Shown here: positions 26,122 to 50,013 of the stretch, in pieces | Layout: each line of letters begins with the position of its first letter | How positions within the stretch are numbered: the first letter of the stretch is position 1 | From: Pirellulales bacterium | Lineage (GTDB): Bacteria; Planctomycetota; Planctomycetia; Pirellulales; UBA1268 | Direction: 5' to 3' | DNA: 62,048 nt | Assembly: GCA_046092585.1 (NCBI GenBank) | Contig: JBJTDZ010000141.1 | Location: 1 to 62,048, forward strand | Program-made: the position numbers and the translations under genes | Notes under the pieces: generated by a model | Seen by the model: only the letters and a program-made list of their open reading frames with translations | What the model was told of the DNA's origin: nothing | Databases searched by the model: none

Positions 26122-27045
26122 TCACCGGGCCCGCGGATGGGCCTTGTCGAAGGCGTCGCGGAGCCGGCTGGTCGTCACGTGGGTGTAGATCTGCGTGGTG
26201 ACAAGGCTCTTGTGGCCGAGGAGTTCCTGGACGCTGCGGATGTCGGCCCCGGCGTCGAGCAGGTGCGTGGCGAAACTGTGACGTAGCGTGTGCGGGCTGG
26301 CCTTGCGGCCGAGTCCGGCGGTCGCGAGGTGTTTTTCCAGGAGCCGGGCCACGCCCCGCACCGAGAGTCGCCCTCCGAACTTGTTCGTGAACAGGGGGCG
26401 GCCGGCAGTCTTGCTCCCGGCCTTCGGCGCAGACCGGGCGGCGAGCCACGCCCGAACCGCCGCCAGGGCGTGCGACCCGACGATGCCGAGCCGCTCGCGC
26501 CGGCCCTTGCCGCGAATGCGGACGGTGGCGTTGTGCAGGTCGAGATCGCCGTCATCAAGGGTGACCAACTCCCGGACTCGGCAGCCCGCCGAATACATCA
26601 GTTCGAGGATCGCCCTGTCGCGGAGGCCGCCGGCCTGACCCGGATCGGGCGCGGCGAGGAGCCGGGCGATCTCGTCGCCGGTGAGGAACTTCGGCAGTTT
26701 TCGTGGGCGACGCGGGCTGCGCAGCGGCTTGGCGGGGTTGGTGGTCGTCCAGCCCTCCCGCTGGCCGAACGCGAAGAAACTCCGCATGCTGGCGAGCTTG
26801 CGGGCGATCGTCGACGGCGCGTATCCGGCGGCATGCAGTCCGGCTGCGAATCGCCGCAGGATCGTGCTGGTGGCGGCCGCCGGAGCGTGGCTGCCCGCGG
26901 AGCCGAGGACCTCCTCGAGCTGGAGGAGATCCTCGCGGTAGCTCTTCACCGTGAGCGGCGAGCCACCCCGCTCGGCGGCCATGAATCGCAGGAAACGTTC
27001 GATCGCCGTCGCGAAGTCGGCTCGTGAGTGTCCCGCGCCCGCCAT
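26122..27045 (-). CDS. xerC: Tyrosine recombinase XerC/XerD type
   Basis: Catalytic set intact: YSAGCR, GKGRRER, HTLRHSFATH, LLGH, TTQIYTH; LPKFL linker. Confidence 0.9.
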   Translation of the reverse strand: MAGAGHSRADFATAIERFLRFMAAERGGSPLTVKSYREDLLQLEEVLGSAGSHAPAAATSTILRRFAAGLHAAGYAPSTIARKLASMRSFFAFGQREGWTTTNPAKPLRSPRRPRKLPKFLTGDEIARLLAAPDPGQAGGLRDRAILELMYSAGCRVRELVTLDDGDLDLHNATVRIRGKGRRERLGIVGSHALAAVRAWLAARSAPKAGSKTAGRPLFTNKFGGRLSVRGVARLLEKHLATAGLGRKASPHTLRHSFATHLLDAGADIRSVQELLGHKSLVTTQIYTHVTTSRLRDAFDKAHPRAR

Positions 27046-34565: not shown

Positions 34566-36881
34566 TCAGGCCGTCGCCTCACCGATCAGGTCGATGATCG
34601 TATCGACGAACGTCTCGTCGTGGAAACTGCTTTTCGTGAGATAGCGGTTGGCGCCGGCATCGAGGCCCCGCAGCCGGTCTTCCTCGCGATCCTTGTAGGA
34701 GACGATCACGACCGGGATGTCCCGGCGGGCGGGGTCGGCCTTGATGAGCGACACCAGGCCGATGCCGTCCATCCGCGGCATGTCGACGTCGGTGACGACG
34801 AGGTCGTAGTGGGTGCCGCGGATGGTGTTCCAGCCGTCCATGCCGTCGACCGCCACGTCGACGGCGAAGCCCCGGGCCTGGAGCAGCTGCCGTTCCAGCT
34901 CCCGCACCGTGATCGAGTCGTCGACGACGAGGATCCGCTTCCGCCGGCGGGCCTGTTCGGTCATCCGCTCGAACTCGACCCGCGACAGCCGGCGTCCGGC
35001 GAGCACGTTGTCGATGGATCGGACGAGATCCTCCACGTCGACGATCAGCACCGGGTCGCCGTTCTCCAGGAGCGACACGCTATTGATGTCGGGCACCTTG
35101 CCGAGACGCGGGTCGAGCGGCCGCACCTCGAGGTCGCGCTCCCCGAGAAACGAATCGACGATCATGCCGAACTGCTGGCCGCGGTCGCTGATCACCACCA
35201 CCGGCATCGGGTCGGCCGGCGGTGCCGCGGTCGCCTCGAGCACCTGCGCGGCGAGCACCAGGCCGATCGACACGCCGTCGCGGTCGAAGTACTGCCGCCC
35301 CTCCACGGTCCGCACGTCGGCCGCGGCGCAGAACAGGATCTGGTCGATGCGGGTGAGCGGGAAGGCGTAGGGCTCGCCTCCGATCTCGACGATCAGCGCC
35401 CGGATCACCGACATCGTGATCGGCAGCTGGAGCGTGAACATGGTCTGGCGGCCCGGCTGCGTGGCGATCCGCACGCTCCCGCCGACGCTCTTCACCATGC
35501 TTTGCACCACGTCGAGTCCGACGCCGCGGCCGGAGATCTCCGTCACCTGGTCGCGGGTGGAGAAGCCCGGCAGGAAGAGAAACTCGAGCAACTCGAGCTC
35601 CGTGAGCTGGTCGGCCACCTGGCGGGCCACGAGGCCGCGGGCCACTGCCTTCGCCCGAAGGTGCTCCACCTCGATGCCGCGGCCGTCGTCGCTGAGCGTG
35701 ATCTGCAGCATCCCGGCCCGGTGCCTCGCCTCGAGGCGGATCGTGCCGGTGGCGGGCTTGCCCGCCGCCTCGCGGTCGGCCGGCCGCTCGAGGCCGTGGT
35801 CGAGCGCGTTGCGGATCAGGTGGCTGAGCGGGGCCTCGAGCTTGTCGAGGATGTCGCGGTCGACGCCCGTCTGCTCGCCGCGAACCTCGAACCGCACCTG
35901 CTTGCCCATCTGGCGGGCGAGGTCGCGGACGAGCCGGGGGAAGCCGCGGATGCCATCGGCCAGCGGCCGCATGCGGCTCACGATGACCTCGTGGTGGAGG
36001 CGGTTGGAGAGATCCTCGTTGCGGCGGGCGAAGCTCTCGAAATCCTCGACGTGGCGAGTGAGGGCGGCGAGGGCGCTGTCGGCCCGTTCGCGGATCGTGG
36101 TGAGCATGGCGGCCGCCGTGGCGGATCCCGTGGCATCGCCCCCCTTGAACCGTTCATCGAGGGCGGCAATCGCGTCGCAGAGGTCGACCTCCGCGGCCCG
36201 CAAGAGCAGCAGCGATTCCACGAACGGCCGCAGCTGCCGGGTCTCCACGAGCGACTCGCCGGCCAGGCCCACCAGCCGCGTGAGGCTGTCGGCCGAGACC
36301 CGCACGACCCGGTCTGACTGCTCGGCCGTCCGGGCCGCCGCCGAGGGCTCCACGGCAGGGGCGGGCTCCGCGGGGGCCGGCTCCGTCGCGGTCGCCGTCG
36401 GAGCGGGTGCGGGAGCCGCGGCCGCAGGCGTCGCGCCGCCCGCCGCCGCGGGGAGCGCGTCGGATGTCGTGGACGACGTCTGGTCGGCGAGCATGCCCGC
36501 CAGATCGGCCACGAGCCGCTCGGCCTGCCCGGGCCAGGCGGCGTGTGGCTCGAGCGCGTCGTCGGCCCTGGCGATCGCCGCCAGGAAGTCGACGCCCGCG
36601 AGCAGCCGGTCGGCATGACGCGGCTCCACGCGGAAAGCCCCCCTGCCCGCCGCCACGAACACGTCCTCGAGCGCGTGGGCGACGCGCACCGCCGGATCGA
36701 GTCCGACGATCCGCGCGGCCCCCTTGAGCGAATGCGCCGCCCGCATCATCGCCTCGACCGTGCGGGGCGAACGCTGCAACTCCTCGATGGCCAGCACCCC
36801 GGCCGAGAGCACGGCCGTCTGGCTCTCCGCCTCGAGGCGGAACAGTTCCAGCATCGAAAATCCGCTCAGGTCGTCAGCCAT
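34566..36881 (-). CDS. cheA: Hybrid CheA-receiver kinase, WspE-like
   Basis: Hpt MRAAHSLKGAA, HLIRNALDHG, FLPGFST..SGRGVGLDVV, CheW domain, C-terminal receiver (VVDDS, DVDMPRMDG). Confidence 0.95.
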   Translation of the reverse strand: MADDLSGFSMLELFRLEAESQTAVLSAGVLAIEELQRSPRTVEAMMRAAHSLKGAARIVGLDPAVRVAHALEDVFVAAGRGAFRVEPRHADRLLAGVDFLAAIARADDALEPHAAWPGQAERLVADLAGMLADQTSSTTSDALPAAAGGATPAAAAPAPAPTATATEPAPAEPAPAVEPSAAARTAEQSDRVVRVSADSLTRLVGLAGESLVETRQLRPFVESLLLLRAAEVDLCDAIAALDERFKGGDATGSATAAAMLTTIRERADSALAALTRHVEDFESFARRNEDLSNRLHHEVIVSRMRPLADGIRGFPRLVRDLARQMGKQVRFEVRGEQTGVDRDILDKLEAPLSHLIRNALDHGLERPADREAAGKPATGTIRLEARHRAGMLQITLSDDGRGIEVEHLRAKAVARGLVARQVADQLTELELLEFLFLPGFSTRDQVTEISGRGVGLDVVQSMVKSVGGSVRIATQPGRQTMFTLQLPITMSVIRALIVEIGGEPYAFPLTRIDQILFCAAADVRTVEGRQYFDRDGVSIGLVLAAQVLEATAAPPADPMPVVVISDRGQQFGMIVDSFLGERDLEVRPLDPRLGKVPDINSVSLLENGDPVLIVDVEDLVRSIDNVLAGRRLSRVEFERMTEQARRRKRILVVDDSITVRELERQLLQARGFAVDVAVDGMDGWNTIRGTHYDLVVTDVDMPRMDGIGLVSLIKADPARRDIPVVIVSYKDREEDRLRGLDAGANRYLTKSSFHDETFVDTIIDLIGEATA

Positions 36882-36896
36882 GGCCGCCGCCTCCGT

Positions 36897-37634
36897 TCAT
36901 GGCGACACCGCGTCGCGCAGGGCGTCGAAGAGCCGCCCCTCGTCGAGCAGGGCGACGGTGCGATCCTGCCACGCGAAGAGGGCCGAGCAGCAGCGGGCCG
37001 CCGCCTGGCTCACGGTGGACGGCACGGGCCGCAGGTCGGCGCTGCCGACGCGGTGGACGCCCGCGAGTTCGTCGATGCCGAGCACCCAGCGGTCGGTCCC
37101 GCGGTCGGTCGTCCGTTCCACCACCATGAGCCGTCGTGTGGTCGCCTCCACGTGGGACGCGTCTCCGTCCACCAGCCCACCGGGGCCGGGGGAAGGGCTG
37201 CCGTCGAGGCCGAGGATCGCGTGCAGCGAGACGCACGGCTGCAGTTGTCCGCGGATGTTGACGAGGCCCGCCAGTGCGCCGCCGGCCCGATGAGGCACGC
37301 TGTGGAGCCGCCGCTCGACCGTGACCTCCACCAGCACCGCCGTGGGCAGGGCGAGCCACTCGCCGTCGATGCGAAACACGAGCACGCCCGTGTCGGCGGT
37401 CTCGGTCGATTCCGCCGGCTCCTCGAGAATCGCCCGCCACGACTCCAGGTAGCCCGCGGGCGCTTCCCGGTCGAAGAACGATCGGGCGGCCTCGGCGAGC
37501 ACCGGACAGTTGCGGCAATGGATGAACGACTGCAGCTCGGGGCAGCTGCGGTCGCCCGCCACGCCGACGATCCGCCAGCATTCGGGCATCGGCTGCTCCA
37601 CCCGCAGGGGCTCGTCATGACGGTGGTCGATCAT
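36897..37634 (-). CDS. cheW: CheW-like adaptor, WspD-like
   Basis: WspD-type N-terminus CW..VGV.GD.SCPEL...HCRNCPV followed by a CheW domain. Confidence 0.92.
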   Translation of the reverse strand: MIDHRHDEPLRVEQPMPECWRIVGVAGDRSCPELQSFIHCRNCPVLAEAARSFFDREAPAGYLESWRAILEEPAESTETADTGVLVFRIDGEWLALPTAVLVEVTVERRLHSVPHRAGGALAGLVNIRGQLQPCVSLHAILGLDGSPSPGPGGLVDGDASHVEATTRRLMVVERTTDRGTDRWVLGIDELAGVHRVGSADLRPVPSTVSQAAARCCSALFAWQDRTVALLDEGRLFDALRDAVSP

Positions 37635-38878
37635 GGCGTCCCCTTTCGGGCCAACACCCGTGCGGCCGACTGGCGGTAGGTTTCCGCCATGCGGGTGTCA
37701 CCCCGCCGTCGGGCCAGCAGTGCCAGGGCCAGCAGGGCCTCCTCGTGGCTGGCGTCGAGGTAGAGCGTCTTGTGGAAGCAGCCCTCGGCGCGGTCGGCGT
37801 CGCCGACGGCCTGGTGCAGCATGCCCATCAGGAAGAAGACCTCCGGGGCCGGGGGGAGTTTCGCCCGCCAGCGCTCGCAGAGGGCGAGGGCCTCGAGGTG
37901 CCTGCCCGCGTTGGCCAGGTGTCCTGCCTCGTCGAGCAGGTCGCCGAGCGACGGAACCGGCTCCTCGGCCACGGCGTCGGCCGGGGCGACGGGGCGGGGC
38001 GACGCCGGCGCGGCCACGAACCGTGGTGCTGGCCGCCGGGCCGCCTGCGGAGGCCTGGCAGCGGTCGGCGGGGCGGGGCGATCGGCCAGATGGATGCCGC
38101 GGCGCAGCGCGAACACCGATGCCGCGCCCGCCTGGATCCAGTCGCCCCGCATGATGGGCGGCTCGGCGGCACCGAGAATCAGGATGCCGTCGGGGCGAAG
38201 CAGCCCGTCGACGACCCGCTCCACCCGCCGCCGGGCGTCGTCGGTGAGGTAGATCAGCAGGTTGCGGCAAAAGATGACGTCGTACGGCCCGCGGTCGATC
38301 GCGAAGCCCTCGTCGAGCAGGTTGCCCCATGCAAACTTCACGCAGCCGCGGACCCGCTCGTCGATCACCGAGCCCGTGCCGGCCGGGCGAAACCAGCGGT
38401 CGCGAAACGCCGCGTCGGCGTTTCGGAAGGCGTTGGCCGAGTACCGGCCGCGGGCCGCCCGGGCCAGGGCGGCATGGCTGACGTCGACGGCGTCGATCGT
38501 GAACTGCTCCGGCGTCAGCCCGGTGTCGAGCAGGGCCATGGCCACGGAGTAGGGCTCCTCGCCTGACGCGCAGGGGGCACACAGGATCCGCACGGGGGTG
38601 CGTCCCGGAAGCCCGACGAGCGTGGCGGCGAAGTCGGCCACGAACGAGAAGACCTGGCCGTCGCGGAAGAACCAACTCTCGGCGACGATCACCTCCTCCA
38701 CGAGGCGGTCGCGCTCGGCGGCATCACCCCGCACCACCTTGGCGAACGCGTCGGGATCGTCGATGCCGAGGGCGGCCATGCGGGTTCGCACCGCGCGGTC
38801 CACGGCAGCGGATCCGATCGTGGCCGCATCCAGCCCGATCCACTCGCGGAGCAGGTGCTCGACGGGGGCGATGGTCAT
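37631..38878 (-). CDS. cheR: CheR methyltransferase with C-terminal TPR, WspC-like
   Basis: ESWFFRD, CASGEEPYS, DVIFCRNLLIY, TPR with KTLYLD..HEEAL. Confidence 0.94.
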   Translation of the reverse strand: MTIAPVEHLLREWIGLDAATIGSAAVDRAVRTRMAALGIDDPDAFAKVVRGDAAERDRLVEEVIVAESWFFRDGQVFSFVADFAATLVGLPGRTPVRILCAPCASGEEPYSVAMALLDTGLTPEQFTIDAVDVSHAALARAARGRYSANAFRNADAAFRDRWFRPAGTGSVIDERVRGCVKFAWGNLLDEGFAIDRGPYDVIFCRNLLIYLTDDARRRVERVVDGLLRPDGILILGAAEPPIMRGDWIQAGAASVFALRRGIHLADRPAPPTAARPPQAARRPAPRFVAAPASPRPVAPADAVAEEPVPSLGDLLDEAGHLANAGRHLEALALCERWRAKLPPAPEVFFLMGMLHQAVGDADRAEGCFHKTLYLDASHEEALLALALLARRRGDTRMAETYRQSAARVLARKGTP

Positions 38879-39327
38879 GGCAGCGCGGAGTCCGGGGCGG
38901 GGGGCGTGGGGGTCGGCACCTCGTCGGGCAGCAGGCTGTCGATCTCGAGCAGTTGGACCGTGCGGCCGTCGATGCGGAGGATGCGGCCGAGGAAGGGGGC
39001 TCGTGTGGCGTCGAGCGGGGCGAGCGAGGCGGCGGCGTTGGTGTCGGAGCAGATCGAGATCACGTCTTCGGCGATGAGCCCGGTGCGGCGTCGATCGCCG
39101 TCGACCACGATGACCCGCGTGCTGAGCCGCTCCGCGGGGGGCCGCACGCCGAACAGGGTCGCGAGGTCGAGCAGGGGCAGGAGTGCCCCCCGGTAGGTGA
39201 AGACGCCACGGACCGACGGTGGGGTCTGCGGGATCGGCCGCGCCGGAACCAGCGGCAGCACCTCGACCACCCGCCGCGATTCGACCGCGTAGGTCTCTCC
39301 GCCGATGGTGAAGGTGAGCAGTTGCAT
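38875..39327 (-). CDS. cheW: CheW-like adaptor, WspB-like
   Basis: LTFTIGGETYA, VVEVLP, GVFTYRG.LLPLLDL, STRVIVV. Confidence 0.92.
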   Translation of the reverse strand: MQLLTFTIGGETYAVESRRVVEVLPLVPARPIPQTPPSVRGVFTYRGALLPLLDLATLFGVRPPAERLSTRVIVVDGDRRRTGLIAEDVISICSDTNAAASLAPLDATRAPFLGRILRIDGRTVQLLEIDSLLPDEVPTPTPPAPDSALP

Positions 39328-39348
39328 GGGAGGGGTGTGCCGGCGGCG

Positions 39349-41361
39349 TCAGATCGTGAACCGCGAGACCTCCTCCTTGAGGTCGCCGACGGCCTCGCGG
39401 AGGTGCACCGTGGCGCCGTTGAAGTCGTTGAGCGAGGACGCGGTGCGGGATGCGCCTTCGGCGAGACGGATCATCGCCTCGCGGATCTGCTCCGCGCCCT
39501 GCGACTGGGCCCGCATGCCCTCCGTCACCTGGCCGAACCTTCCGGAGATCCCTTGCACCGCGGTGATGATCTCGCCGAGCTTGGCGGACACCGCGCCGAT
39601 CTCGCGGACGCCCGTGCGAACCTGTTCGGCGAACTTGTCCATCTCCATCACGCCCGCCGACACGCTGTACTGCATGTCCTTGACCATGCGTTCGATGTCG
39701 AGCGATGCCACGGCGGTCTGGTCCGCGAGCCGGCGGATCTCGCGTGCCACCACCAGGAAGCCGAGGCCGTATTCACCCGCCTTTTCGGCCTCGATGGCGG
39801 CGTTGATGGAGAGCAGGTTGGTCTGGTCGGCCACCTTGGTGATCGTGGTGACCGCCAGGTTGATGGTGGCGGCCCGCTCGCTGATCACGGCGAGCTTGGA
39901 GCCGAACGAGGCGGTGCTCTCGGCGAGATGTCGCATGGTGCCGTCCATGCCGGCGAGATCGGCCCGTCCGTCCACGGCCATCCGGCCGGTGTGCCCCGCC
40001 ATGTCATTGACCTCCGTCATCGTCCGCACGAGTTCCTGGCTCGTGACGGAGATCTGTTTCACCGCTGCCACGGCCTCGCTGGTGGAGGCGCCGTAGTCGG
40101 TGATCACCTGCTGCTGCTCGCTCGCCGTCGCCTGGATGGCGGTGGCCGTCGAGATCAGCGCCACCGACGAGTGCTGGATCCGGCCGATGAGGCCGCGAAG
40201 GTCGTTGGTCATCGTCTGGATGGCGGTGAGCAGGGCCCCCGTCTCGTCGTCGGTGAGCCCGCCGACGTCGGCCCGCAGGTCGCCGCCGGCCACCTGGTTG
40301 GCCACGGCCACCGCGGTGCGGATCGGCGTGGAGATGGTGCGGGCCACGACGAGGGCCGCAGCCGTCACGCCCACGATCGTCGCCAGCGAGAGGCCGATCA
40401 CCGCGAGCCGCTGGAAACGGATCAGCCCGAAGGCCTCGTCGGCATCCTGCTTGACGACGAGCCCCCAGCGGAAGCTGGGCACGTAGCACCAGGCCGCTGC
40501 CACGTCGGTGCCGCGGTAGTCGACCGCCTCGCCGTAGCCGCGGTCGCCGGCCGCCGCCCGTTGCGTGGACGTCGCCTGCGCCGAGGTGAGAGGAATACGG
40601 AGGCGGAACGGGGCGTTGGTGGCGTGCCGCAAGGGCGTGGTGATCAGCACCGACGAGCCGGCGAGTTCACCGCCCACGATCTCGCCGGTGTCGCCGAGCC
40701 CGGTCAGGTCGGAGAGGATCTTCCACACCCGCTGCGTGCCGATGGCCAGCGCGAGGACGCCGGTGACCCGACCCTCGTCGAAGACGGGGCAGGTGACGAA
40801 GGCGAGGGGCGTCATCGACCGGCCGTAGGGCTGGAAGCCGGAGAGATCCGACTGCAGCAGCGTGCGGGCGCGGTCGAAGCCCGTGGCGAGTTCGGAGGAT
40901 GCGAGCACGCCCCCCGTCACGCTGCCGCCGCGGGGCACGTCGTCGCCCAGTGAAAACACGACCCGACCGGTGGCGTCGAGGAGCAGCAGATCGGCGTAGT
41001 CGAACGCCTTGGCGACGTAGGTGAAGTACTCGTGAAACTCGTCGCCGGCTTCCCGCAGCTGCTCGGCGTCGGTCAGCGGCGACAACTCGCGAATGGCCTG
41101 CACGAAGGTCGGTCCACGGGCAAAGGCGGCACAGTCGCGAACCCGCTCGGCGGCGTAGGCCTCCAACTCGTTGGCCTTGCCGGCGGCGATCTGCACGAGG
41201 TTGTCGCGCACCGCTTTCTCGAGCGCCCGTGTCGCGATGCGGGCCGTGATCGCAGTAAGGATCGCGCACGGGATGAGTGCGATCACGAGGAACCAGAAGA
41301 GCAATCGGCCCGCGATCGACCGCCGCAGGCTGCCGCCGCGGTGCTCGGTGTGCATGCTCAT
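39349..41361 (-). CDS. Methyl-accepting chemotaxis protein with dCache-like sensor, WspA-like
   Basis: TM1, about 280-aa periplasmic domain (DYRG..V.AAW..WGLVVK), TM2, HAMP, signalling tip [25 protein letters not shown]. Confidence 0.94.
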
Positions 41362-42725
41362 CGCGTGGCCTCCATCGCGTCCGTCGGGCCGCCGGGGGCG
41401 GTCGTCGTGTTGCCCCATTGGCCGCCCCAGGACCGCCGCAGGTCGCCCACGAACGCCTCCCATTCGGGCCGCGAACGGGAGATCGGAAATGGGACGGGCC
41501 GCACGGCCGTCCGGCTGGTCCAGACGATGTCGAACTGCCCGTCGTTCCGCACGCGGCCGATGAACACCGGCCGCCAGGTGTGCTGCGTTTCCGGATCGAT
41601 CGCGATGATGCCCTCCGGCGCGTTCATGCTCTGGTGCCGCATCGCGTTGCGAACCGGCCGCACGTCGGCGGTCTCGGCCTCGCGCACGGCCTGGGCCCAG
41701 AGTCGCACGCTGTTGTAGGCCGCGACCGTGACATCGGAGGCCACGCGGTCGGCACCGTAGCGGGCCTTGAAGGCCCGCACGAACGCCAGGTTCTCCGGCC
41801 GCTCGATACTCTGGAAGTAGTTCCATGCGGCATAGGTGCCCGCAAGGGTGGCGGCCGACCCGTCACGGAGTTCGTTTTCCGCGATGGCGAACGTCACGAT
41901 CGGGGTCGTCTCCGCCGACAGCCCCGCCGCCCGCACGGCCCGCGCGAACGGGATCGCCGAGTCACCCACCACGGTGCTCAGGATCACGTCGGGTTTCGCG
42001 GCGGCGATGCGGGCGGCGAGCGCGTCGGCGTCGGTGCTGCCGAAGGGGAGGTAGGCCTCGCCCACCAGCGTGGCGTCGAGGCCCGCGAGCTGGTCGGCGG
42101 CGATTGCGTTGACGCAGTGGGGCCAGATGTAGTCGGAGCCCACCAGGAAAAACCGACGGGCCTGCAGGGCGTCGTGGCACCACTGCACCGCCGGGGTGAT
42201 CTGCTGGTTGGGTGCAGCACCGGTGTAGATGATGTTCGGTGACTGCTCGAGACCCTCGTACGCCATGGGGTAGACGAGGAGGTGATCGTGCGACTCGACC
42301 ACCGGCAGCACGCTCTTGCGGGAGGCGCTGGTCCAGCAGCCGAAGATCACGCTCACGCCATGCTCGCGGATCAGCGACTCCGCCTCGCGGGCGAATGTGG
42401 GCCAGTCGGAGGCACCGTCGGCGACCACCCAGCGGATCGGCCTGCCGAGGAGACCGCCCTGCCTGTTCAGTTCCTCGAGCGCGAGGATTTCCGCGTCGAT
42501 CATCGAGCGTTCGCTGACGGCCATGGGACCGGTCTGCGAGTGGAGGATGCCGACGACGATCGGGTGGCGGGCAATCAGGATCCTGTCGACGGCAAACCAC
42601 GCGGCGGCCGCCAACGCCGCGATCCCGAGCACGACGACGGAGCCGAGCCAGCGGCGCGCGGGGCGGGCGTCGGCTTCCGCCGTGGCCGGCCGGGCGACGG
42701 TCGGTGACATCCGGGCCATGGACAT
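41358..42725 (-). CDS. UrtA/AmiC-family urea/amide-binding protein, membrane-anchored, no transporter adjacent
   Basis: [61 protein letters not shown]. Start uncertain (42725/42719/42710). Stop overlaps the MCP start. Confidence 0.9.
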
Positions 42726-43098
42726 GGAAAGACCATTCGAGGTGACGGCGGCGGTGGCAGGCCGGCACGCACGGCGCGCACCGCACCACCCTGCCGCTCC
42801 TGCAATCTTTGTCCATCTTTCCCGACCGGGCGACGAGCCGGCGAGAAAACGGGGCCGAGGGCGCCGGTCGTCCCGGTTTTTCGGCCGCAGGAGGGCATCT
42901 CGCCCGGTTCGACCGTCACCAGTCGTTCGAACGCCCCCCACCGTGCGGGCCCCCTCGCCCGCCGGTTGCCCGGGACGGCCTTCTGGCCCGGTGCCCGCAA
43001 ATGGGGTATATCAACGAGGCGGCGCGAGCGTGGCTCCGTACCGGGGGTGCCCGGGGTCGAAGCGTGCGGGTGGACGTCGCTGCGAAGGACGCCGACGA

Positions 43099-45092: not shown

Positions 45093-45305
45093 GGCGCGCC
45101 TTTCGCTCGGGGACTGGGCGGAACCCGCGGGTTTATCGGCTTGGCGGCGGCACGGATTCAATGCCAGTTCGGCGTTCCCGGGATACGTCGCCCGGACCTC
45201 CCCCTCGGGCCAGTCGCCCCCGCTTCCCCGGCTTTCCGGGTCGCGGCGAGCCCCTATACTCCCCCGGGCACGATTGGCCCCTTCCACCGCCGAGGACGCA
45301 CCGCC

Positions 45306-45617
45306 ATGTCATCCCGCGACGAACGCTATGCCGCCGCCGAGAAACTCAAGGATGCCGGAGATCTGGCGGCCGCCGTGACGGCCATGGAGGCCCTCGTCGC
45401 CGACGAGTCGGATTTCGCCCTGGCGCACTCGGCCTTGGCGGCATGGTGCACGCGGTTGGAACGGCATGAACAGGCCGTGCAGCACGCCCGTCGGGTCGTG
45501 GAACTCGAGCCCCGCGACCCGTTCAGCTACACCGCCCTGAGCGTCGCCTGCATGCGCGCCGGGCTCATTCCCGAGGCGGAAGACGCGCTGGCCCGCTCCC
45601 GGATGCTCCAGGGCTGA
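45306..45617 (+). CDS. Small TPR protein
   Basis: Three TPR-like helix pairs (ALAHSALA, VELEPRDPFSYTALS). Confidence 0.8.
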   Translation: MSSRDERYAAAEKLKDAGDLAAAVTAMEALVADESDFALAHSALAAWCTRLERHEQAVQHARRVVELEPRDPFSYTALSVACMRAGLIPEAEDALARSRMLQG

Positions 45618-45627
45618 CGAGGAGGCA

Positions 45628-48600
45628 TCATCCCTGGGGGGGCAGGGGCTTCGGCTCGGCAACGCCGAGCGCGGCCTCGAGGTCGCCGAGGATCTTGCGG
45701 TCGGCGGGCGAGAGTCGGGAGATCGCCAGCCCCTTCCGCCTCCCCGCGTCGAGCGACCGACGGGCCGCTGACTCGTCACCCGCCTGCAACTGGGCCCAGG
45801 CGAGATGCAGGAACTTCACGTCGGTCGCCTGGAGGACGGCCTCCTGCAGGTCGGTCACCGCATCACGGGCATCGCCGGCCGCGAGCAGCACCATGCCGCG
45901 GGTGTCGAGCAGGTCGGGCAGCGGGCCGAGTTCGTCGATCGCGCGGTCGATGAGCGTCCGTGCCTCGCCGACCGTCGCCGGCTTGGCAAGATGAAACGCC
46001 AGGTTGTTGGAGACGATCGCCTTCTGCGTGCCGTCGAGCTCGGCGCTGGCGAGAAGGTCGCGGTAGATCGCCTCGGCGGCGTCCGGATTTCCCTCGAGCG
46101 ACCGCAGTTCCGCCTCGAGCAGCCGCAGCACGACGGAACCCGGGTCGATCCGGCGTCCCTTCGCGATCCACGCCTCGACGCGGGGGGCGACCGTCGCGGG
46201 AGTCTCGTGGCAGCGGACGATCTGCATGGCGGAGGTCAGCAGCCGCTCCAGCGGGATCGCATTCCAATGGGCGTCGAGCAGGTCGAGAGCCTCGTCAATC
46301 CGCCCTTGCCGGCCGAGGAAATCGGCCCGGGCGACGACGCCGTCGGCGGAACGCTCCGCAAGCTGATGCCGGGGGGCATCGTGGCTGGCGACCAGCCGGC
46401 GCAGCTCAACGCCGTCGCCCGGCTGATGGAGCAACTCGGCTTCCCCAAGGCCGCCGACAAGGTGCTGGCCCAGCTTGCGGGCCGCCTCCGCGGCGAGCTT
46501 GCGATCCTGCTGGGCGATCGCGAACTTCGCCTCCAGCGCGATCGTGATGGCCGAGTCGGGGCTCGCTTTCTGGAGCCGGGCCAGCCACGGGCGGGCTGAC
46601 GAGACCTCGCCGTGATCGAGCATCTTCTCGACCAGCATGGCGATGTACGCCGGCGGCACGTTCGGTCCGGCGACCACCGCGACCAACTCGTTCCGGCAGT
46701 CGTCCCATGCCCCCACCTTCTCGTGAAGCTGGGCCAGCATGATCCGCTGGCCGATGGACAGCGGCTGCTTCCGCGAGAGTTCCTCGAGCGTCGCGATCGC
46801 CTGCTTCCAGCTGGCCGGTTCGGGCCTGCTCGTGAGCAGCTTGATCAGGAGCAGGGTGTCTTCGACCGACATCTGCCTCGTGTCGTCGACGTTCTCCTGC
46901 AGGAGCTGCATCGCCCGCTGCATGTCGCGAAACGTGCCCCGCTCGGCGATCATTTCGGCCATCATTCTCCGGGCCCAGGCCCGTTCCCCGCGGGCGGCGG
47001 CCGAGTCATCCGTGGAGGCGATCATCGCGTCGAGGGTTTCGCGGGCCGGACCGAGACGGCCGCACCGCACGAGGAAGGCCGCGAGCCCGCGGCTCGACTC
47101 CAGGTTGCCCGGGGCGACGCGCACCGCCTCGCGAAACGCCTCCTCCGCCTCGTCGGGTCGTCCGAGCATCTCGTAGCCCTGGGCGAGAGTCAGCTGCCGC
47201 TTCGGCTCCGGCATCAACTCGGCGGCCCTGGCGAGACTCCGCGCCGCCAGCGGATTGCGGCCCATCGCGACCTGCTGGGAGAAGAGCGCCACCCAGGCAT
47301 CGCTGCGCTCGGGGGCGACGTCCGTGGCCCGCGTGAGCACGTCGGCGGCACGGTCGTTCTTCCCGGAGCGGGCGAGCAGCTGGCCGAGCCAGAGGAGGTC
47401 GTCCGGATTCGACGAATCCCGCTCAACGCTGCGCTCGGCGAGCGCGACGGCGTCGTCGAACTTGCCGGCCCGCAGTTCTGCCTCGGCGTTGAGCCGCTCC
47501 AGACCTTGCTCCCCTTCAACGCCCAGCGTCTCCATCGCCAGCCTGGCCTCTTCGAGCCGGTTGGAGGCATAGAGCAGTGACACAAGCCGCCGCGTGAGCG
47601 CGGGGCTTGCGGGCCCGAGTGCCACGGCCTTTTTCAGCCGCTCGATCGCGCCGGACACATTGCCCTTCAGGCCCTCGATCTCCGCGGAGAGCACCTGGAG
47701 TTGGTTCCAGCCGGGGCGGTCGTTCTCGGCTTCGATGAGCAGGTTCCGCGCCTCGTCGAGCCGTCGTCGTTCCTCGGCGGAAAGCGCCGAGACGTCCTCG
47801 CCCGAGGCCTGCCGCTGCGCGGCGGACTTCCGCACTTCGAAGATCAGCACGCCCGCCTCAGCCGCCCGGGCTCGGGCTGACCCCGCGCCCGATGCCCTCG
47901 CGACACCAGCCGCCGCCGCCTTGGCCGCCTCGAGATCGCCGCGGGCGACGGCAAGTTCGAGCAGTGCCTCGTGCGGGCGGATCTCGTCGGGCTGCAGCGC
48001 GGCCACACTGGTCCAGATCCGCGTGGCGGTCTCCGTCTGTCCGGCGGCCAGCGCGACGCCGGCGATCGTCGAGAGCGTTTCGGCCGCCTGATCCGGCGGG
48101 AGCGAGGCCGCCATGGCCTCGATGTCGGCGAGCGTCTCACCGGCCGCCGCCTCGGGGCGGCGTGCCGCCGCCTGCGCTCTCACGACCAACACCGGCGGCG
48201 TGTCGGCGACGGTCGGGGGGGCCTTGGCCAGCAGGTCCGTCGCCGCGTCCGGGCCGTCTGTTCGCAGCACGAGCGTGGCGAGCGCCGACCAGACCTGCGG
48301 ATCGGGCTCGCGATCGGCGGTCGTTTGCAGCAGTTCGCGGGCGGTGTCCCGCTCGCCCTTGCGCACCAGCGAGTCGGCGCGGAGAAGCAGCAACTGTGTC
48401 GGCGTCACCTCGGCCGACTGCTGCAGGATGTCGAGCAGGGCGTCGACCTTGTCCCAGTCGCGGTCGGCCGCCGGCAGGCTGGCCTGCGTCTGCATCCGCA
48501 GCTGCAGCAGCGGGTACCACACCTGGGGCACGGCGGCCAACTGGTCGGGCGGCAGGGCGGCCGCGAGCGACTCGAACTCGGCGAGCGCCTCGCTGATCTT

Positions 48601-50013
48601 GCCGGCCGCGGCCAGCGCGGCGGCGGTGCCTGCCCGGGCCGCGAGCGACGTGGGATCGTCGGTGAGGATGCGCCGATTCACGTCGAGCTGGGCGTCGTAT
48701 TCGTCGAGCTGGGCATGACACTGGCCGAGGTACAGGTCGACCTGTCGGACGAGTTCCGGGGAGCCGATCACGACGGGCCGCACGGCCTCCAACTTCGTTT
48801 TCGCCTCGGCCCACTTCCGTTGTCCGACCAGGAGCCGTCCCTCCAGCAGACCCACCGCGGGACTGCTGACGCCGTAGAGTTCCTTGATCCTGGCAATCGT
48901 CTGGCCGACATCCTCGAACTTGCCCTGCTGGAGGAGGGCGTCGGCCAGCATGAGGAGCAACGACGCCTTGCCCGGAAACCGCTCGATGCCCTCGAGCAGC
49001 ACGAGTTCGGCCGCCGCCGGATTCGCCTTCTGGAGTTCGATGGCGGCCAGGCCGCGGTAGCCGCGTTCGTCGCCGGGAAACGTCTTCACCGCGTTGGACG
49101 CGAGCGATTCCGCGGCGGCCAGGTCACGGCGGGCGAGGGCCAGTTCGAATCGGGCGAAGACCGCGTTGGGGTCGTCGGGGGCGAGCTCGATGGCCTTGGC
49201 CACCTCCCGCTCGGCGGCCTCGTACTCGCCCCGCTGGCGATGCCAGCTGCTGATGGCCAGCCATGCCTGCGGATCACCCGCGTACGTTTCGAGCATGCGG
49301 TCGAGCACGAGTGTCGCGGCTGCAGGGTCCTCGAGTTTCTCCTGCAGAATGGCCGCAAGGATGATGTAGGCCTCGGTCGGCCCCGTGCGCTTCGTGTCGG
49401 GGTCGAACCGCCGGCCATCGAGATCGAAGCCGACCATGGCCGCAACGCGGCGGCCCGCCTCGGGCACGTCGCCGGCGGCGAGGTACGATCGCGCCGCGAG
49501 CAGGTCGACCGTCTCGAGCGTCAGCGGGCGACTGCCGGCGGCGGGTTCGTCACCGCCGACTTCCGACGCGGGCCCGGCTTCTCCGGAGGCGAGGCGCTCG
49601 CGCAACACTTCGAGGTGCTCGCGGGCGTCGATGGCCCGACCGATGCGGAGTTGGAACTCGGCAAGTCGGCGACGGAGTTCGTCGTCGTCGGGGTTGCGGC
49701 GGACGGCGGTCTCGAGCGTGTTGTACGCCTTGGCCACGTCGTTGCGGGTCGCATCGGGGGCCTCGGCTTGGGCCAGCATCAGCCGTGCGTACTCGGCGAA
49801 CGCCGCATGATCGTCGGGCCGCAGTCCGAGGTAGCGGCCGAAGAGCATGAGCGCCTCGGCCGGCTTGCCCTCGTCGAGCCGTATCTTCGCGAGCTTCGCG
49901 AGGCTGCCGGCGTTTCGCGACACCTGAAAGCGGCGCAGCAAGACGGTCCCCCCGATGACACCGATCGCCACGGCGATCAGGATCACCAGGGGCTTGAGAT
50001 TGATCCGTTTCAC
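45628..50013 (-). CDS. Giant N-terminally anchored TPR protein (1461 aa) containing an apparently inverted 35-codon segment
   Basis: N-terminal TM, many TPR motifs, C-terminal NNLAFHLA..LLDTRG. Residues about 1182-1216 read like antisense sequence (see findings). Confidence 0.88.
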   Translation of the reverse strand: MKRINLKPLVILIAVAIGVIGGTVLLRRFQVSRNAGSLAKLAKIRLDEGKPAEALMLFGRYLGLRPDDHAAFAEYARLMLAQAEAPDATRNDVAKAYNTLETAVRRNPDDDELRRRLAEFQLRIGRAIDAREHLEVLRERLASGEAGPASEVGGDEPAAGSRPLTLETVDLLAARSYLAAGDVPEAGRRVAAMVGFDLDGRRFDPDTKRTGPTEAYIILAAILQEKLEDPAAATLVLDRMLETYAGDPQAWLAISSWHRQRGEYEAAEREVAKAIELAPDDPNAVFARFELALARRDLAAAESLASNAVKTFPGDERGYRGLAAIELQKANPAAAELVLLEGIERFPGKASLLLMLADALLQQGKFEDVGQTIARIKELYGVSSPAVGLLEGRLLVGQRKWAEAKTKLEAVRPVVIGSPELVRQVDLYLGQCHAQLDEYDAQLDVNRRILTDDPTSLAARAGTAAALAAAGKISEALAEFESLAAALPPDQLAAVPQVWYPLLQLRMQTQASLPAADRDWDKVDALLDILQQSAEVTPTQLLLLRADSLVRKGERDTARELLQTTADREPDPQVWSALATLVLRTDGPDAATDLLAKAPPTVADTPPVLVVRAQAAARRPEAAAGETLADIEAMAASLPPDQAAETLSTIAGVALAAGQTETATRIWTSVAALQPDEIRPHEALLELAVARGDLEAAKAAAAGVARASGAGSARARAAEAGVLIFEVRKSAAQRQASGEDVSALSAEERRRLDEARNLLIEAENDRPGWNQLQVLSAEIEGLKGNVSGAIERLKKAVALGPASPALTRRLVSLLYASNRLEEARLAMETLGVEGEQGLERLNAEAELRAGKFDDAVALAERSVERDSSNPDDLLWLGQLLARSGKNDRAADVLTRATDVAPERSDAWVALFSQQVAMGRNPLAARSLARAAELMPEPKRQLTLAQGYEMLGRPDEAEEAFREAVRVAPGNLESSRGLAAFLVRCGRLGPARETLDAMIASTDDSAAARGERAWARRMMAEMIAERGTFRDMQRAMQLLQENVDDTRQMSVEDTLLLIKLLTSRPEPASWKQAIATLEELSRKQPLSIGQRIMLAQLHEKVGAWDDCRNELVAVVAGPNVPPAYIAMLVEKMLDHGEVSSARPWLARLQKASPDSAITIALEAKFAIAQQDRKLAAEAARKLGQHLVGGLGEAELLHQPGDGVELRRLVASHDAPRHQLAERSADGVVARADFLGRQGRIDEALDLLDAHWNAIPLERLLTSAMQIVRCHETPATVAPRVEAWIAKGRRIDPGSVVLRLLEAELRSLEGNPDAAEAIYRDLLASAELDGTQKAIVSNNLAFHLAKPATVGEARTLIDRAIDELGPLPDLLDTRGMVLLAAGDARDAVTDLQEAVLQATDVKFLHLAWAQLQAGDESAARRSLDAGRRKGLAISRLSPADRKILGDLEAALGVAEPKPLPPQG
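46356..46480. repeat. Perfect 10-bp inverted repeat flanking a 105-bp segment (candidate invertible element)
   Basis: CCGCAAGCTG (46356-46365) and CAGCTTGCGG (46471-46480) are exact reverse complements; the inner 105 nt is open in both orientations. Confidence 0.85.

Follow-up and report, generated by a model that had tools for sequence, protein, structure and literature searches.

A 105-nt segment of a giant TPR-repeat protein gene from a Pirellulales bacterium is bracketed by a perfect 10-bp inverted repeat, and the assembled text of this segment looks antisense to the gene around it. The locus raises the question of whether the living cell flips the segment to make two protein isoforms, whether it carries a single micro-inversion that arose by mutation, or whether an ordinary gene was altered on the way from DNA to contig. 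The window, i.e., the whole stretch of DNA that was analysed (62,048 nt), is contig C141 of a 3.0-Mb, 151-contig genome with 70% G+C that is rated 98.5% complete. The features under discussion are collected in Table 1.

Table 1. Position of the inverted segment, its flanking repeat, and related features in the window.
Feature	Position	Strand	Details
Giant TPR-repeat protein gene	45628..50013	-	ORF, 1461 aa, GTG start; Pfam TPR_19/14/16
Left arm CCGCAAGCTG of 10-bp inverted repeat	46356..46365	+	QLA codons in the gene
Inverted 105-nt segment	46366..46470	+	Residues 1182-1216; inverted in the window's assembly only
Right arm CAGCTTGCGG of 10-bp inverted repeat	46471..46480	+	RKL codons in the gene
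8-bp partial copy	46496..46503	+	Second RKL tripeptide; 75 copies in the genome, chance-level
Nearest tyrosine-recombinase domain (PF00589)	26170..26691	-	About 19.7 kb from the inversion

The giant TPR gene has matches in 21 of 24 congeners and is a conserved single-copy orthologue of this Pirellulales-type genus, and its product is identical to P0070 in the protein collection. An earlier note on this DNA, which proposed a candidate inverton, described the repeat correctly: the two arms are perfect reverse complements, enclose exactly 105 nt, and are codon-aligned in the minus-strand gene. The repeat arises from the RKL and QLA codons of the gene, and both peptides were reproduced along with the counts of codons ending in A or T (7/35 as assembled vs. 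2/35 when flipped). The segment's native text, MPGG…KVLA, lies on the + strand of the window, antisense to its gene. The codon score (sense minus antisense) of the segment is -12.2, whereas 1354 further stretches of 35 codons in the gene have a mean of +14.7 and a minimum of +0.13. Because the score of the segment is below those of all these stretches, the inversion is not a chance reading, and the 105-nt segment is confirmed to be inverted in the assembled text.

Perfect 10-bp inverted repeats are common in this DNA, with 105 pairs at a spacing of 30-300 nt in the window and 14 in the giant TPR gene. An inversion is never able to shift the reading frame, and 571 of the 759 comparable in-gene repeats (arms of at least 10 nt, 60-150 nt apart) remain stop-free when the text between them is flipped. 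The observation that neither orientation contains a stop or frameshift is therefore true but carries little weight, and a frame open in both directions was rejected as a sign of selection. Similarly, the 8-bp partial copy of the arm is present as claimed but lends weak support, given its frequency in the genome and its coding for a second RKL. In the surroundings of the gene, a small TPR protein gene identified by Pfam hits (45282-45614, +) converges on the giant one, and ARAGORN calls a tRNA-SeC at 41718-41803 (-) within the ORF at 41358-42941, which is probably a false call. The run of ORFs at 34566-42941 (-) is presumably a chemosensory-like cluster (CheA-, CheW-, CheR-, and receptor-like genes, as we judge from the translations) and is preceded by what we take to be a substrate-binding-like gene.

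Comparison with homologues indicates that the flipped text is the native one, as the earlier note had supposed. Among 29 non-self loci, 23 had a hit in the region and 6 had none; the MPGG… peptide was matched better at all 20 same-genus loci and at the three loci with a hit from other families. The opposite possibility, that the assembled peptide is native and there is no inversion, was favoured by 0/23 of these loci and was rejected. At the protein level, 72 of 73 homologous TPR proteins have the MPGG… orientation (two unrelated dehydrogenases in the comparison file gave no hit), and the check for the assembled peptide in homologues, suggested by the same note, found it only in the window's own protein, which lies on one contig of 62,048 nt, equal in length to the window. 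The four other members of its cluster, on 10 contigs, are all native, as are both JGI contigs of a relative with 72.5% identity. The protein P0071 of the collection is identical to the window's protein outside the inverted segment.

Sequencing runs of the same species point in the same direction. Of the 15 runs available as contigs, four from a single study account for 94% of the sampled words; in each of these the locus is spanned by one contig (word depth 8.5-49.7), and the orientation is MPGG… in 4/4 cases. The remaining eleven runs have small shares and are outside this count. Over 1.5 kb, the contigs of the four runs differ from the window in a single synonymous letter, which suggests that they may derive from another population than the window's source. 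In all four, the strand relative to the window changes precisely where the repeat lies; the joints are at 46355/46480 or 46365/46470 and share 10 letters. The window's own junctions were found in none of the four runs (0/4), as assembled in Logan contigs, from which rare variants are lost; neither these same-species runs, nor the JGI contigs, nor the protein collection contained the assembled orientation on any contig other than the window's.

The existence of two orientations across data sets (the window vs. the same-species runs), together with perfect, in-frame inverted repeat arms in a gene that is open both ways, would suit a programmed and reversible intragenic inverton, in which a recombinase flips the segment to give two TPR isoforms. 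However, none of the four runs has both orientations, with the reservation that contigs hide minor alleles. The genome does encode recombinases, namely three tyrosine (PF00589) and four serine (PF00239) recombinase domains, but all except the nearest are on other contigs, and nothing was found that links the inversion to the nearest one. The absence of an adjacent invertase, as had been noted, is thus correct. Recombinase sites would be expected to be conserved or to be shared between loci. The repeat, when checked in relatives as had been recommended, is perfect in 0/20 congeners, in which 2-8 of the 10 letters match. The arm occurs at eight further scattered places in the genome, none with a partner, and a pattern search gave no matches at a spacing of 20-50 nt, which adds little. 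A shared recombinase motif was also rejected since the arms match in only 6 of 10 letters between the window and the second inversion of this genome (on contig C19, described below), with no other paired copies.

The predicted effect on the protein also bears on the inverton. Of the 35 native positions in the segment, 16 are conserved in at least 90% of 61 aligned sequences. A 270-residue fragment with the native segment was modelled with helices at 128-140 and 144-155 (mean pLDDT 91.9, pTM 0.77), whereas the fragment in the assembled orientation has pLDDT < 50 at 123-146 and a pTM of 0.48, although the alignment used for folding consists of native homologues only and biases toward the native model. 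According to these models, the recoded peptide is predicted to break a conserved helix pair. The alternative peptide reads as antisense text, is matched by no homologous protein (1/73, the window's own), and is modelled as disordered. The proposal that the locus switches one TPR unit on and off is therefore unsupported, as the assembled orientation is confined to a single contig, the repeat is not conserved, the helix pair would be lost, and other chimera-like junctions are present in the assembly. Recoding invertons do exist, including one with an 11-bp repeat (PMC10028968), yet we regard an inverton at this locus as highly improbable.

The same genome contains a second in-frame micro-inversion, located at C19:9489-9586, in which 10-bp perfect arms (about 19 of 20 letters when extended) enclose 78 nt. 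This inversion scrambles a conserved motif of an iron-containing alcohol dehydrogenase (Fe-ADH), for which 24/24 orthologues have the native orientation. The enzyme scores 126.4 bits in Pfam with the native text and 93.5 bits with the assembled text. The protein P0075, encoded on another contig of the same species, differs from the C19 protein only within the inverted segment, and the inverted protein itself, P0074, serves as a cluster representative. The C19 inversion emerged when every short inverted repeat in the genome was scored with a codon model. These scans were noisy and dominated by gene boundaries; after filtering and homology checks only C141 and C19 were left, while C47, C30, and C97 stayed at the level of candidates. 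The exactly 10-bp perfect cores in both inversions may reflect chance or detection bias. Hairpin strength was considered as a predictor of inversion and holds for C19 (rank 2 of 586 among exact-10 arms) but fails for C141 (rank 153 of 586).

An independent DNA comparison was made with the congener G023. It used 120 stretches of G023 (1.84 of about 4.3 Mb), so that further inversions may be missed, and covered about 1.05 Mb of the window's genome. Opposite-strand matches numbered 12. Apart from C141 and C19, they consist of a terminal fold-back on C133, five rows on C76, and four short hits, three of which are at palindromes common to both genomes. Over the approximately 1.05 Mb of aligned blocks, no in-gene inversion of G023's own was found. 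The C76 rows concern a glycine-rich repetitive region (C76:61-1021), the halves of which match the congener on opposite strands, either by inversion or as an effect of the repeats.

The ends of the contigs provide a further line of evidence. Exact fold-backs, in which a contig ends in a reverse copy of nearby sequence, occur at 28 of 302 contig ends of the window's genome and at 0 of 173 contig ends of G023, despite the same palindrome family and the same 141-nt overlaps in that genome. Sixteen of the 28 coincide with a natural palindrome present in multiple copies and can arise without chimeric reads, while 12 are in single-copy DNA (examples of fold-back ends are the 3' ends of C133, C147, C9, C26, C102, and C142). 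The gene containing the C133 fold-back is collinear in G023, and the two sides of the fold-back share about 4-7 letters at their joint, a length below that of an assembly k-mer. Among 20 overlap lengths tried, an overlap of 141 nt was found for 22 pairs of contig ends, and this value, which we take to be the largest default k of MEGAHIT, suggests MEGAHIT as the assembler. A 10-bp gap-closing join, a behaviour that we presumed of SPAdes, was dropped as an explanation in view of the 141-nt overlaps. Near the start of C99, a 255-nt inverted copy (C99:201-455 vs. 728-982) with 93% identity interrupts a gene, presumably peptidase-like; the two copies agree fully over the first 68 nt, and the mismatches beyond resemble read errors.

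The confinement of the inverted text to one data set, the second and unrelated inversion, and the fold-back ends together favour an artefact of library preparation or assembly, in which template-switch chimeric molecules were built into a short-read assembly. We assign this explanation a probability of roughly 0.85; in the living cell, the TPR gene is likely an ordinary one. The outcome that the earlier note had set against its own candidate switch, an assembly artefact, is thus the favoured one, on evidence from the contigs of other runs rather than the source reads. The locus has the features of a template-switch chimera, with junctions at a short inverted repeat, occurrence in one data set, and other inverted junctions in the same assembly, whereas the ordinary strength of the C141 hairpin counts against an artefact. 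During library preparation or amplification, a single strand may fold back or switch template at a chance 10-base inverted repeat and would then be extended on the wrong template. One such switch would give a fold-back of the form A-x-rc(S)-x'-rc(A), as at the contig ends, while two complementary switches at one repeat would produce A-x-rc(S) and rc(S)-x'-B as junctions. Where the true coverage is thin, a de Bruijn assembler working on short reads could connect both junctions and output a clean inversion.

Replication template switching at the repeat in a living cell could also have produced a real, one-off micro-inversion, which would be a damaging mutation and not a switch. The geometry is that of short-range template switching, the reading frame stays open, and the four native runs, with their one synonymous difference, perhaps represent another population. 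This explanation nevertheless requires that two conserved motifs (the TPR helix pair and the Fe-ADH motif) were damaged independently and that both lesions became fixed in one population, and the TPR segment is strongly conserved, as described above. It leaves the 12 single-copy fold-back ends unaccounted for, and the aligned part of G023 offers no comparable event. A one-off mutation therefore appears unlikely, if less so than an inverton. The broadest biological claim, that a freshwater planctomycete flips in-frame segments of ordinary genes such as the giant TPR gene and the alcohol dehydrogenase between a working and a recoded state, frequently enough to reach the assembly consensus and with no dedicated adjacent invertase, is in our view very hard to credit.

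If the inversion is an artefact, its biological import is most likely none, and the gene is an ordinary TPR gene. The consequences concern the assembly itself, since a 98.5%-complete draft that is the sole genome of its species in the comparison set contains at least two stop-free micro-inversions. Such stop-free changes pass gene calling and reach the protein collection, in one case as a cluster representative (P0074), and their sites mimic intragenic invertons. Counts of fold-back contig ends may serve as a cheap warning sign, and other odd features of this assembly, e.g., over-long palindrome arms at contig ends, are equally suspect.

Our literature search returned nothing on invertons together with chimeras or library artefacts, nor on such an artefact in assemblies, which is no proof of absence; the separate phenomena are documented. 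Intragenic invertons that recode proteins have been described, e.g., BT0375 and nagA of Bacteroides thetaiotaomicron, and were called from reads in both orientations; PCR confirmed 10 of the 59 tested and did not confirm the other 49 (PMC10028968). The window resembles these in having short inverted repeats within a gene and a flip that changes part of the protein but introduces no stop, and differs from them in that none of the four runs has both orientations, the repeat is unconserved, and the assembly contains other chimeras. Micro-inversions by short-range template switching during replication are reported as real mutations (PMC7954356; 10.1101/038380), and those cases and the window have in common that a spacer flanked by short inverted repeats is inverted in a balanced way, which requires no enzyme. 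Unlike those mutations, the window's variant occurs in just one assembly, which also has fold-back contig ends. Chimeric reads from library preparation with reversed sequence between inverted repeats are also reported (PMC10908179), and 85% of the chimeras described from multiple displacement amplification (MDA) are inverted, with priming at 2-21 complementary bases (PMC1855051), a range that includes the 10-nt junction pairing of the window. As in both of these accounts, the sequence between short natural inverted repeats is reversed in a single library, here with fold-backs elsewhere in the assembly, although the cases described there are single reads with one junction, whereas the window has both junctions in a consensus contig. 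The inversion behaves like a template-switch event, most likely one that took place outside the cell.
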